DNA of 64,000 nt, from the IMG/VR virus record IMGVR_UViG_3300032240_001667, positions 1 to 64,000 of that record; one strand, 5' to 3'. The notes below the pieces were generated by a model. It was given only the letters and a program-made list of their open reading frames with translations. It was not told the DNA's origin and made no database searches. Numbering within the stretch: the first letter of the stretch is position 1; each line of letters opens with the position of its first letter. Positions 333 to 56,980 of the stretch are shown in pieces. The DNA comes from a virus. The position numbers and the translations under genes are program-made.

Positions 333-370
333 ATTTGCTACCTTCTTTCTTTATTTAACTTGATACTAGT

Positions 371-411
371 ATCCTATCAGATACCACCGACATTATCAAC
401 ACGACACGCCG
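371..411 (-). promoter_or_regulatory. Leftward promoter TTGATA-17-TAGGAT with an embedded RecA-NDp/PafBC-type motif (TGTCGGTG-8-TAGGAT) and an upstream CGGCGTGTCG box
   Basis: Reverse complement reads cggcgtgtcgtg-TTGATA-aTGTCGGTGgtatctga-TAGGAT. Confidence 0.75.
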
Positions 412-453
412 TAACCGATAGAACTTTCTTTATTTAATTTTTCTTACTCTGTA

Positions 454-555
454 AGTCTATCCTATTAGTCTAAAAATATCAACTTACTAGCGAGTAGTCT
501 TAAATAATGAGACGCTCAACCTGTGTGATAAAAATCATAGTGTGGCGACACGCCC
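454..555 (-). promoter_or_regulatory. Leftward promoter module TTGATA-17-TAGACT with a 17-bp palindrome (497-513), a CRP-like site (524-539) and a CGACACGCC box (546-554)
   Basis: Motifs read directly; inverted homolog of 2412-2525. Confidence 0.7.
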
Positions 556-1741: not shown

Positions 1742-1796
1742 TTTGACCACCTTTCTTTAGTTAGTTATTTATTCTTATTTAATTGTTATGACTGTA

Positions 1797-1862
1797 AGTC
1801 TAGCATAGATACCCTGAAAAGTCAAGGCGACACGCCGTATCTAGAATGTGATTTAGATCACA
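1797..1862 (-). promoter_or_regulatory. Leftward promoter TTGACT-17-TAGACT with a CGGCGTGTCG box (1828-1837) and a perfect CRP/GlxR-type site TGTGA-N6-TCACA (1847-1862)
   Basis: Read directly from the sequence. Confidence 0.75.
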
Positions 1863-2136: not shown

Positions 2137-2226
2137 ATAATAACACATTAAATCCCAAAAGTCAAACGACACGCCGTATTTCGCAGATGAACAGAAGATG
2201 AACAACAATGCACATAGTTATCCACA
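2137..2226 (-). promoter_or_regulatory. Leftward promoter TTGACT-17-TATTAT with a CGGCGTGTCG box (2167-2176), an 11-bp-period GTTCATC direct repeat (2186-2203) and a DnaA box TTATCCACA (2218-2226)
   Basis: Read directly from the sequence. Confidence 0.7.
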
Positions 2227-2261: not shown

Positions 2262-2327
2262 TGTGGTATAGATCACATGCGACACGCCGTTCTAGGACTT
2301 GACTTTTTGACTAATGTATGTTAGTAT
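2262..2327 (+). promoter_or_regulatory. Rightward promoter P1, TTGACT(2299)-17-TAGTAT(2322), with a CRP-like site (2262-2277) and CGACACGCCG (2280-2289)
   Basis: Read directly from the sequence. Confidence 0.75.
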
Positions 2328-2379
2328 TACTACTATAAGAATTAAATATAGATAAAGGTTATTGAGCCTACCAAATAAA

Positions 2380-2395
2380 TCGAACAGATGTTCGA
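2380..2395. promoter_or_regulatory. Actinobacterial LexA SOS box TCGAAC-AGAT-GTTCGA
   Basis: Perfect match to TCGAAC-N4-GTTCGA. Confidence 0.65.
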
Positions 2396-2411
2396 GTGAG
2401 CGTAGCAAATA

Positions 2412-2497
2412 AGTGACCTAAATCACATAGTCTGAGCGTCTTAGATTATGAGATTACTAGTAAGTAACTTGATATTTTTGAGATATTCTGTTAGACT
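2412..2497 (+). promoter_or_regulatory. Rightward promoter P2, TTGATA(2469)-17-TAGACT(2492), with a CRP-like site (2412-2427) and the palindrome GTCTTA-N5-TGAGAT (2438-2454)
   Basis: Read directly; homologous to 454-540 on the opposite strand. Confidence 0.7.
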
Positions 2498-2658
2498 TAC
2501 GAAGTAAGAAAAATTAAATATAGAAATCCTAGTGAGCCTGTTGAGCCTACCAAATAAACCGATTATCGGGTGAGCGTAGCAAATAAACAGCAAATAACCT
2601 AGGCAAGGAAAAGCGGTAGACAAAGTGTCTATCTATTACAAAGAAAGGTGGTTCACAA

Positions 2659-2886
2659 ATGAACTACACTACATACTACAATGAAATCCGTAGCGATATT
2701 GCTAAGGAGTTTGGTCTAGAGGCTGCTGGTTATGCTCCTGCTCCTACTATGCTACCAATTAGAATTGCTCAACGCATTACTAACAAATATCCTAGCATAG
2801 ACAATGGTTCTCGCTGGGGTGCAACTAACCCTAAAGCGGTTCTAATCGCTAAGCGTTATATGTCCCTAGTGATGGGGGTTAAGTAA
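2659..2886 (+). CDS. Hypothetical early protein (75 aa)
   Basis: ORF track; RBS GAAAGGTGG. Confidence 0.8.
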   Translation: MNYTTYYNEIRSDIAKEFGLEAAGYAPAPTMLPIRIAQRITNKYPSIDNGSRWGATNPKAVLIAKRYMSLVMGVK

Positions 2887-3045
2887 ATGAATAAGATTAT
2901 TATTACTATTGCTATATCATTATTACCATTAGCAATCGTTACACCTAACGCTCACGCTAAGTCATGTGGTATTTACTATACATATCACACAAGCCATGTG
3001 TCGGGGCATACAACAATGCGACATGTCTATCGTTGTTCTAAATAA
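2887..3045 (+). CDS. Small secreted peptide precursor (52 aa): signal peptide plus a 28-aa two-Cys peptide
   Basis: Manual translation MNKIIITIAISLLPLAIVTPNAHA-KSCGIYYTYHTSHVSGHTTMRHVYRCSK; abuts the upstream stop. Confidence 0.65.
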   Translation: MNKIIITIAISLLPLAIVTPNAHAKSCGIYYTYHTSHVSGHTTMRHVYRCSK

Positions 3046-3057
3046 GGAGAATTAAAT

Positions 3058-3171
3058 ATGATTAACTCAATGTATGTTCACAAATGCGAATCATGTGGAG
3101 ACACTGGTCTAGTTTATTTTGGTGACAAGGAAATCCATATCGATCCATGTGCATGTCCACCAATTCAGTAG
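3058..3171 (+). CDS. Small Zn-finger-like protein (37 aa; CESC...CAC)
   Basis: Manual translation; RBS AAGGAG. Confidence 0.7.
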   Translation: MINSMYVHKCESCGDTGLVYFGDKEIHIDPCACPPIQ

Positions 3172-3192
3172 GTGGGTACTAGATAAATCTAA

Positions 3193-3227
3193 TGAGCACT
3201 CGATAAAAAAGTGCTCACTATTTTTTT
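3193..3227 (+). terminator. Intrinsic terminator of the rightward early operon
   Basis: TGAGCACT-(9)-AGTGCTCA followed by a T tract. Confidence 0.8.
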
Positions 3228-3331
3228 GGTTTTTATTTTTTAAATATGTGTATCATACATCTGGTAAAAATATTCAGATTTTCACAAAACCCAATTTTTA
3301 ATTTTTTTCAGATTTGAGGTATAATAAACAT

Positions 3332-56672: not shown

Positions 56673-56980
56673 TGGCTGAACGCAAAGACCGAATGGCTTT
56701 GCTTAGTAGATACAACAAACTGCATTTGCAAAGATACGAGCAAAAGTCTAACATGAATCTTAATGTAGAACAATGGGCTGCGGATGGCTTGGTTGAGTCA
56801 TATGGAATTTCTCAATGTTATGATTTATTAGATTATTATTTTAATATTGCACAAGATCCAAATTGGAATTTCTTTGCATACAATGCAGAAAAAATTCTTA
56901 ATGGTAAAATTGATAAAGAGCAAGATGATAAAGAACGAATAGAGCGTAGGAAAAAAGCAAAGGAGTGGTTAAATCAATAA
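56672..56980 (+). CDS. Hypothetical protein (possible helicase loader)
   Basis: ORF track; directly upstream of DnaB. Confidence 0.6.
   Translation: MAERKDRMALLSRYNKLHLQRYEQKSNMNLNVEQWAADGLVESYGISQCYDLLDYYFNIAQDPNWNFFAYNAEKILNGKIDKEQDDKERIERRKKAKEWLNQ

Follow-up and report, generated by a model that had tools for sequence, protein, structure and literature searches.

The divergent intergenic region analysed here almost certainly encodes two cis-acting structured leader RNAs, both on the plus strand behind the predicted promoters P1 and P2, and both built from one repeated block: an asymmetric internal loop, 5'-UGAGC-3' opposite 5'-CAAAUAA(N)-3', next to a short helix of the CUAG type. We conclude that this modular leader RNA is real, widespread and uncatalogued in Rfam; its structure is established by comparing homologues, and its function is one that we infer. 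Throughout, the window denotes the whole stretch of DNA that was analysed; it covers the initial 64 kb of an IMG/VR record that is 79 kb long and 73% complete.

The region spans 2087-2658 (572 bp), since the leftward small genes end at 2086 and the rightward ones start at 2659. A consensus scan predicts three promoters of one type in it, whose -35 hexamers are close to consensus, whose spacers measure 17 bp and whose -10 hexamers are TG-extended (2299-2327, 2469-2497 and, leftward, 2165-2137), and transcription is predicted from both promoter P1 and promoter P2. The first-pass annotation of this DNA described a duplicated box-hairpin-box arrangement behind the two rightward promoters, each copy preceded by an A-rich start, and all of its coordinates check out (Table 1). 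The two A-rich starts are 94% identical; the two palindromes differ in sequence and retain their pairing; and the second copy is bounded by CCTAG (2528-2532) and CTAGG (2599-2603). The box itself, GAGCSTASCAAATAA, is 15 nt long and occurs exactly at 2364, 2398, 2543 and 2572, always on the plus strand, with a fifth match, at two mismatches, at 56942. By chance 0.48 matches are expected in 64 kb, and five matches were reached in none of 100 shuffles.

That no plausible open reading frame lies here also stands. Only two ORFs in the ORF list overlap the region, both short, on the minus strand and with a TTG start (38 aa and 60 aa), and the 60-aa frame is found again in just 3 of 115 loci among the matches listed. 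No ORF separates the element of promoter P1 from promoter P2 in the window.

Table 1. Predicted features of the leader region and its surroundings, in window coordinates
Feature	Position	Strand	Sequence or basis
Leftward promoter (predicted), same type, element-less leader	2137..2165	-	consensus scan
Promoter P1 (predicted)	2299..2327	+	TTGACT, 17 bp, TG-extended TAGTAT; consensus scan
Second candidate promoter, overlapping promoter P1	2307-2336	+	TTGACT-18-TACTAT
A-rich leader start, copy 1	2337..2352	+	AAGAATTAAATATAGA; direct repeat D10/D11
Element 1, two modules	2356..2419	+	MFE fold, model R1, covariation
Element 1, helix P1	2356-2362 with 2413-2419		
Element 1, box 1	2363-2378		
Element 1, helix P2	2368-2371 with 2402-2405		CUAC with GUAG
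Element 1, P3 hairpin	2379-2396		
Palindrome, copy 1	2380-2395		TCGAAC-AGAT-GTTCGA
Element 1, box 2	2397-2412		
Promoter P2 (predicted)	2469..2497	+	TTGATA, 17 bp, TG-extended TAGACT; consensus scan
A-rich leader start, copy 2	2509..2524	+	direct repeat D10/D11, 94% identity to 2337-2352
Element 2, three modules	2528..2603	+	model R1 and three-module homologues
Element 2, helix P0	2528-2532 with 2599-2603		CCUAG with CUAGG
Element 2, outer loop	2533-2537 opposite 2591-2597		UGAGC opposite CAAAUAA
Element 2, short helix, 4 bp	2538-2541 with 2587-2590		CUGU with ACAG
Element 2, box 1	2542-2557		
Element 2, helix P2	2547-2550 with 2576-2579		CUAC with GUAG
Element 2, P3	2558-2570		
Palindrome, copy 2	2559-2569		CCGA-TTA-TCGG
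Element 2, box 2	2571-2586		
Three small genes behind the elements (75, 52, 37 aa)	2659..3171	+	ORF list
Hairpin with T-run closing the three-gene unit	3185..3225	both strands terminator-like	inverted repeat I11

In element 1, two loops mirror each other across the 4-bp core helix P2, between an outer helix and a terminal hairpin, so that the two-box form reads helix P1, loop, helix P2, flipped loop, P3: a pseudo-two-fold hairpin. The minimum-free-energy fold of 2334-2440 yields precisely this nesting, and the element scores 75.5 bits (E 5e-16) with the covariance model R1. Element 2 scores 64.9 bits (E 2e-13) and carries a third loop stacked outside the two-module core. Its single-sequence fold does not give the comparative nesting, which is drawn instead from homologues: 16 distinct three-module elements, with five versions of helix P0 and five of the inner short helix, all of them pairing, are present among the matches listed. 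These matches also include one locus with a single module and one with two modules in the same orientation. Because forms with one, two and three modules and a same-orientation form all occur, we regard the loop as a reusable module.

The comparison rests on a scan of IMG/VR viral contigs with the pattern TGAGCSTASCAAATAA, which returned at least 120 stretches. In the listed stretches and the window together, 115 sources hold at least 131 box pairs, 107 of them distinct. Three false elements, in which box 2 of an element had been joined to box 1 of its neighbour, were left out before counting, as were elements flanked by fewer than 14 nt. Among the matches listed, the box cores are CUAG/CUAG in 82 cases, a self-complementary pair, and CUAC/GUAG in 22; the three CUAG/CUAC cores are artefacts that bridge two neighbouring elements. 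Matching insertions among the covariance model matches add a fifth pair to helix P2 (CUAAG/CUUAG, CUUAG/CUAAG and CUAAU/AUUAG). Since the box cores are complementary, these insertions included, the middles of the boxes form helix P2. The boxes had been proposed to be free single strands, and in this respect the proposal fails: their central four nucleotides pair box to box, CUAC with GUAG. Similarly, the picture of boxes flanking a hairpin is right about the hairpin between them, but the remainder of each box belongs to the repeated internal-loop module.

The flanking helices vary much more. Among the matches listed, the outer helix P1 has about 60 sequence versions of 3-9 bp and the P3 hairpin has 55, and every version pairs. 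We used a structure-blind MAFFT alignment of 101 distinct elements among the matches listed, in which 84.7% of the cells of the proposed pairs are paired, versus 58.8% after shuffling; when the partners are slid along the alignment, only 24-46% of cells pair. The covariation score is 0.516, versus 0.124 for shuffled alignments, a value reached by none of 500 shuffles, and both sides change in 11 of the 14 pairs. The variable box-to-box pair of helix P2 illustrates the point: in the same 101 elements it is G-C in 79, C-G in 22 and unpaired in none. An alignment fitted to the model gives 88.1% paired cells and a covariation of 0.561, figures that lean towards the model. Thus covariation in three helices lends strong support to the suggestion that this is a structured leader RNA without coding function, and the search for homologues that had been proposed as a check finds the boxes conserved in related phage contigs.

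The loops, by contrast with the drifting helices, hardly change. UGAGC is retained in both boxes of 101 of 101 elements among the matches listed, and CAAAUAA varies at positions 2 and 4 only, mainly in box 2. The energy of folding says less than the comparison does: copy 1 has z = -2.06, an energy that 9 of 200 shuffles equal or better, while copy 2 has z = +0.37 and a lowest-energy fold that differs from the comparative structure. A strand test by wobble pairs was uninformative (14 G-U versus 10 A-C inside helices). A GNRA tetraloop, however, caps P3 in 46 of 104 distinct elements among the matches listed when the plus strand is read, and in none of the 104 when the opposite strand is. Since these caps occur on the plus strand only, and since the element always lies in the sense direction behind a promoter-like site, we take the RNA strand to be the plus strand.

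In some elements the P3 hairpin is a palindrome of a kind familiar from DNA operators. Among the 104 distinct elements in the matches listed, P3 is CGAAC-N4-GTTCG in 7 and TGTGA-N6-TCACA in 19 others, with one further near match, so that 26-27 of them have an SOS-box or CRP-site type of palindrome. The SOS-type palindrome in P3 of the window is the sole such site across its 64 kb. This is the grain of truth in the earlier idea that the boxes flank an operator.

The loop carries the sequence signature of the UAA/GAN motif (UA_handle family), which is printed as ccUAAg/uGAagg in the relevant part of PMC2615604. As in that motif, UAA on one strand lies opposite GAG on the other, and on the outer side closure by a U·R or U·Y contact is possible, between the U of UGAGC and the nucleotide that follows UAA; this nucleotide is mostly G or A (alignment columns 12/63 and 29/46; 101 elements among the matches listed). 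The motif proper is closed by Watson-Crick pairs on both sides and forms a cross-strand A stack. The inner side here departs from it, with CAAA opposite a single C before the CUAG helix, and the loop is a candidate at most for the motif's fold. Readings of the loop as a K-turn, a sarcin-ricin loop or a tetraloop receptor were dropped by eye, the required G·A pairs or bulge geometry being absent.

Where, then, does the element lie in a genome? In the window and the remaining 19 kb of the record, model R1 finds no copies beyond these two. Among 12 related records it matches in 4. One relative that is 100% complete (115 kb) has two copies, at 11.1 and 12.5 kb, and another (112 kb, also 100% complete) has three, at 9.7, 11.0 and 11.2 kb. 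All copies of both genomes thus fall within 9.7-12.6 kb, on both arms of a divergent early hub, the rightward and leftward copies pointing away from each other. The other eight records, which are 41-76% complete, show no copies, and in these the region may simply be missing. The relative L089 has a third, leftward element that is absent from the window, as well as an element-less leader with a plain hairpin in the same position.

The same arrangement is seen on the leftward side of the window. In the leader of the promoter at 2137-2165 a plain hairpin (2103-2121) occupies the element's place, and model R1 has no match there; an inverted repeat of this leader (I13) and the leader of promoter P1 have ATAAAGGTTATT in common. 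At least four of the window's promoters of this type, all of them leftward, lack the element (2165-2137, 1825-1770, 482-431 and 399-352). Where the element does occur, among the matches listed, a promoter-like site lies upstream in most related loci, the orientation is always sense, and most loci have an anchor of the TTAAATA type 13-37 nt ahead of box 1. From promoter-like site to element start the distance is about 20-35 nt. The hairpin has about 20 nt of unpaired A-rich RNA in front of it.

The genes downstream are small and diverse. The family of the 75-aa product, which matches no Pfam family, comes after the element in 13 loci among the matches listed; other loci differ from the window, and over all loci the first gene downstream belongs to one of more than 10 unrelated small-protein families. 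Because this gene differs so widely, the element is not tied to one gene. Behind the three small genes of the window stands the hairpin at 3185-3225, which the terminator scan places on the minus strand; on the plus strand its T-run begins 3 nt past the stem, outside the rule of the tool. Canonical terminators are not enriched downstream of the element in general (19 of 86 elements among the matches listed have one within 1 kb, versus about 17 expected at a density of 0.2 per kb), a count made with a conservative finder that overlooked the window's own hairpin.

We scanned 122 of the 150 representatives of neighbourhood families against Pfam (the 28 left out are mostly the shortest), together with 20 further proteins. 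The families found include lysozyme, GP88, DUF932, a glycosyltransferase, RNR and several DUFs; neither an RNA-binding or antiterminator domain nor an N-like protein was identified among these 122 families and 20 proteins. A very basic 46-aa protein family occurs in 58 of 115 neighbourhoods among the matches listed, and is not present in this record, which is 73% complete.

The element has no counterpart in the collections that we searched. Nothing matching it is in Rfam 15, which had been named as a place to look: at gathering thresholds the whole window gives 0 matches, and with E up to 10 the interval 2280-2670 gives three chance-level matches, of 11-24 bits versus gathering thresholds of 59-94, none of them on the element's structure. 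A blastn search of the intergenic region against 50,697 phage records (E 1e-5) found nothing; with the common element and E up to 10 it found short chance matches in 46 records, none spanning both boxes. Model R1 has 0 matches in four cultured Stanwilliamsviridae genomes, a collection without a positive control. The two-box pattern gives five hits in 185,579 species genomes. Three are MAG contigs of 1.1-1.9 kb and one is a 9.7-kb MAG contig, which matches twice; all four are probably phage fragments. The fifth, a cyanobacterial dispersed repeat, was taken as chance, for it is missing the hairpin, so that no genuine bacterial chromosome among the 185,579 genomes carries the pattern. Among 8.4 million full texts, no relevant paper contains the exact box sequence. 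A catalogue of 2023 mined IMG/VR intergenic regions for covarying structures and reports 8,495 candidates of median length 65 nt; the main-text passages considered describe no motif like this element, which may nonetheless be among its unnamed DNAVirus_X candidates (PMC10690425).

The portal protein of the window shares 45-48% identity with its counterparts in Streptomyces phages that belong to the family Stanwilliamsviridae. It matches 252 records, of which 127 are Streptomyces phages, and IMG/VR has at least 596 stretches with a gene for a related portal. Given this kinship, and neighbour proteins of the Pfam families 'gene product 88' (GP88) and DUF932, the host is probably an actinobacterium. 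Judged from the sample series, most source samples look to be freshwater.

What might such an RNA do? We assign a probability of roughly 0.4 to the reading that it marks the head of an operon in the manner of lambda nut or HK022 put, in which a partner is retained and the transcribing complex is made resistant to pausing and termination. On this reading the RNA would emerge from RNA polymerase right behind the strongest early promoters, and a conserved partner would read the invariant loops; the candidates are the polymerase, an elongation factor of the host (NusA, for example) and a small protein of the phage. Whichever it is, it would remain on the elongating complex, and transcription would then pass signals such as the hairpin and T-run at 3185-3225. 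The helices would merely keep the loops at a fixed spacing, which would explain why they vary freely. Several facts taken together favour an operon-head signal, as opposed to a switch for one particular gene or an ornament of mRNAs in general: loops that are invariant in helices that vary freely, only 2-3 copies per genome of about 110 kb, a location at the heads of both arms, and independence of the gene that follows. The existence of at least four promoters of the same type without an element also counts for this reading.

In lambda, each early arm has a nut site in its leader, close to the promoter, with a short gene and a terminator behind it, as in the layout pR-nutR-cro-tR1. The order here is similar (promoter, element, a few short genes, terminator-like hairpin), and it counts for a lambda-like reading. 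The A/U-rich loop strand and leader start are also reminiscent of the A/U-rich nut spacer bound by NusA (PMC2724277). Unlike nut, however, the element contains no string like boxA as it is given in that part of the source (CGCUCUUA, PMC2724277), nor a boxB-type, GNRA-like pentaloop of fixed sequence, the loops of P3 not being fixed.

The put site of HK022, in the description excerpted from PMC9378689, is a cis-acting RNA of about 70 nt, present in two sense-oriented copies downstream of PL and PR, one on each divergent arm, which makes polymerase read through terminators independently of protein; it folds into two adjacent stem-loops with a triple helix and binds the zinc-binding domain of the beta-prime subunit of E. 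coli polymerase. Our element is placed like put, being 64-76 nt long, in the sense direction, and present in 2-3 copies per genome on both arms of the early hub. It differs in that it is a single hairpin interrupted by 1-3 copies of one loop, in showing no sequence likeness (put being known to us by description only), in its probable actinobacterial host, and in that its activity is only inferred. The earlier comparison with nut and put therefore fits with respect to placement, promoter-proximal and sense with 2-3 copies at a divergent early hub, but not with respect to architecture, which is unlike both.

Several observations count against antitermination: the unenriched terminators, the absence of RNA-binding or antiterminator domains among the neighbours, an architecture unlike the put stem-loops or boxA and boxB, the ORF-less leader of promoter P1, and the weak folding energies. 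So does the occurrence of 1-3 module copies, which a binding platform or decoy would fit at least as well. As to the partner, the KH domains of M. tuberculosis NusA bind extended RNA in which AUA is critical, and E. coli NusA prefers A/U-rich nut spacers, according to the corresponding parts of PMC2724277. The loop strand CAAAUAA includes AUA and the leader start is also A/U-rich. NusA is nevertheless a mere lead, a likeness over the three nucleotides AUA that could be chance. A bolder, joint claim is that the loop module, in 1-3 copies and either orientation, captures the actinobacterial polymerase or NusA unaided and that P3 serves as an operator slot; we think it unlikely that both parts hold.

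If the RNA does not act on the polymerase, it may be a multivalent decoy or binding platform, whose loops would titrate an RNA-binding protein of host or phage (a nuclease, a defence protein or a translational regulator can be imagined) or mark early mRNAs for later shut-off. We judge this somewhat doubtful, even though the objections to antitermination fit it nearly as well. Very strong early promoters would ensure the supply, as the near-consensus -35 and extended -10 hexamers suggest; the module is repeated within the element and tandem elements occur; promoter P1 drives an ORF-less element ahead of promoter P2; and the loops stay unchanged where the helices drift. The basic 46-aa family could be pointed to as a partner, but it is missing from this incomplete record, and the scanned neighbourhoods offer no RNA-binding domain or identifiable partner. 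The CsrB-like sponge suggested earlier is a possible reading that none of the present results favours. The CsrB and RsmZ sponges exist as free small RNAs and display GGA in many hairpin loops. Like them, the element repeats short conserved motifs on a structured and, by prediction, strongly transcribed RNA; unlike them, it has 1-3 internal loops, always sits inside the leader of an mRNA and is not consistently followed by a terminator. To our knowledge, moreover, Actinobacteria have no CsrA. Another role, which we hold to be improbable, is that of a 5' stabiliser or processing site: the compact hairpin would block decay that depends on the 5' end (RNase J or RNase E), or would itself be cut, as T7 early leaders are by a double-strand-specific RNase, and would so set the half-life of early mRNA. 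Element-less leaders of the same promoter type have a plain hairpin in this place (2103-2121, and in L089), and the modules accordingly resemble an elaborated version of such a generic hairpin; the two-fold pseudo-symmetry of the two-module form would moreover suit a dimeric enzyme. Yet invariant 12-nt loops are unnecessary for such a role, the one-module and same-orientation forms lose the symmetry, the hairpin begins only after about 20 nt of A-rich, unpaired RNA, and the element is found on only 2-3 of many early promoters.

Each loop might instead bind a small molecule or an ion that reports the state of the host, tuning early expression like a riboswitch. Invariant internal loops in variable helices would be in keeping with this, and tandem or two-domain riboswitches are precedents for repeated ligand-type modules. 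In one subclass the 3' strand of helix P1, GUGACCU, could even pair alternatively with a downstream UCAC, but this GUGA/UCAC pairing coincides with a DNA palindrome ahead of the next promoter. A conserved expression platform is absent, with neither a consistent terminator nor sequestration of a ribosome-binding site found, and the downstream genes are unrelated small ORFs of more than 10 families with no metabolic theme, so we consider a sensor very improbable. We give hardly any credence, finally, to a purely DNA-level element, in which the boxes would be direct-repeat protein sites, iterons or stoperator-like, around an operator palindrome. The stoperators of mycobacteriophage L5 are orientation-dependent sites, and here too the boxes have one orientation only relative to transcription; the operator-type palindromes of P3, including the window's single SOS-type site, point the same way. 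The proposal of iterons flanking operators is contradicted by the manner in which the boxes change: they are not identical copies, as iterons or stoperators would be, but vary in complementary fashion (CUAC/GUAG, CUAAG/CUUAG, CUAAU/AUUAG). The outer strands, 45-60 nt apart, covary as well, and the minimal GNRA-capped hairpins (46 of 104 among the matches listed) make sense only as sense-strand RNA.

The phages of abundant low-GC freshwater Actinobacteria are not yet culturable. The loops of the element are conserved letter for letter across at least 120 contigs, and are restricted to 2-3 sites of the early hub in genomes of 110 kb. The element therefore gives direct access to early control, since a 70-nt RNA could serve to fish out whatever partner recognises the loops. 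If that partner is the transcription complex, RNA-driven antitermination extends beyond the lambdoid phages. Were the joint capture claim true, the element would be a processive antiterminator that needs no protein and has no relation to put, the first such case among actinobacterial phages, and its terminal hairpin would also host SOS-type or CRP-type operators for host regulators at the DNA level. If the partner is instead a host defence or decay factor, the element would be a new RNA countermeasure. In addition, the loop module, repeated and reversible as it is, is a candidate for a new building block of RNA three-dimensional structure.

In element 1 of the window, the terminal hairpin between the two boxes (helix P3, 2380-2395) is a perfect TCGAAC-N4-GTTCGA palindrome, which we take to be of the same type as the actinobacterial SOS (LexA) box. 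When up to one mismatch is allowed, it is the only CGAAC-N4-GTTCG site in the 64 kb, where 0.18 would be expected; and the same SOS-type palindrome forms P3 in 7 of 104 distinct elements elsewhere, among the matches listed. P3 itself is TGTGA-N6-TCACA in 19 of the 104 distinct elements, with one additional near match, again among the matches listed. The RNA seems to use its free terminal hairpin as a slot for DNA operators.

Palindromes of the form GTGA-N6-TCAC, of the CRP-site type, occur at two places in the window, as listed in the table. They also constitute P3 of many loci (e.g. L006, L016 and L025).

Coordinates of features in the window and of one example from a related viral contig (L118)
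Feature	Position	Remark
Same-family promoter without element, AATTAAATA-type leader start	1770-1825 (- strand)	
Same-family promoter without element, AATTAAATA-type leader start	431-482 (- strand)	
Same-family promoter without element, AATTAAATA-type leader start	352-399 (- strand)	
Plain hairpin GTTAATAA-AGG-TTATTAAC in place of element	2103-2121	leftward leader
GTGA-N6-TCAC palindrome	2413-2426	overlaps 3' strand of helix P1, upstream of promoter P2
GTGA-N6-TCAC palindrome	1848-1861	upstream of leftward promoter at 1825
46-aa basic protein, example	L118:6131-6268	

Short palindromes are also formed by the -10 hexamer together with the first transcribed bases, both in the window (2322-2336 and 2494-2506) and in the promoters of related loci. 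Their sequence varies from promoter to promoter (in the window, TAGTA-TTAC-TACTA versus ACTT-ACG-AAGT), and perfect stems of at least 5 bp are present in 47% of 81 distinct promoters, among the matches listed, compared with 12% of shuffles. The window also has an exact 11-nt repeat, CGACACGCCGT (2167-2177 and 2280-2290). In many related loci its complement, ACGGCGTGTCG, directly precedes the -35 hexamer, and a TGTCAG or TGTCGG motif occurs in the promoter spacer. The repeat and the spacer motif are probably transcription-factor sites.

The leftward leader with the plain hairpin (- strand), whose promoter belongs to the same family, has a AATTAAATA-type start as well, and shares 12 nt with the leader of promoter P1. 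Over 29 nt, the start of the promoter P2 leader (2509-2537) shows 72% complementarity to 3213-3241, which takes in the T-run and 3' half of the 3185-3225 hairpin; this match may simply reflect A-rich against T-rich sequence.

The two-box pattern also matched an intergenic repeat (…TCTGAGCGTAGC…) of the cyanobacterium Dulcicalothrix desertica PCC 7102 (L129:7533-7579, from the species-genome scan), which we rejected as a chance match having neither hairpin nor outer helix.

Among the matches listed, 58 of 115 element neighbourhoods encode a very basic 46-aa protein (ELRRSNAA..NKKKYTRK). The family corresponds to no Pfam family, and was not found in the window's own record, which is 73% complete; it may be an arginine/lysine-rich RNA binder.

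To the right of the divergent early-promoter region (window 4691-64000), the long ORFs lie nearly all on the + strand, and their products include tail-fibre-like Mtd_N proteins, a class II ribonucleotide reductase, portal, protease, capsid and a 2870-aa protein. Thus, the element-bearing promoters stand at the head of a very long co-directional gene array.
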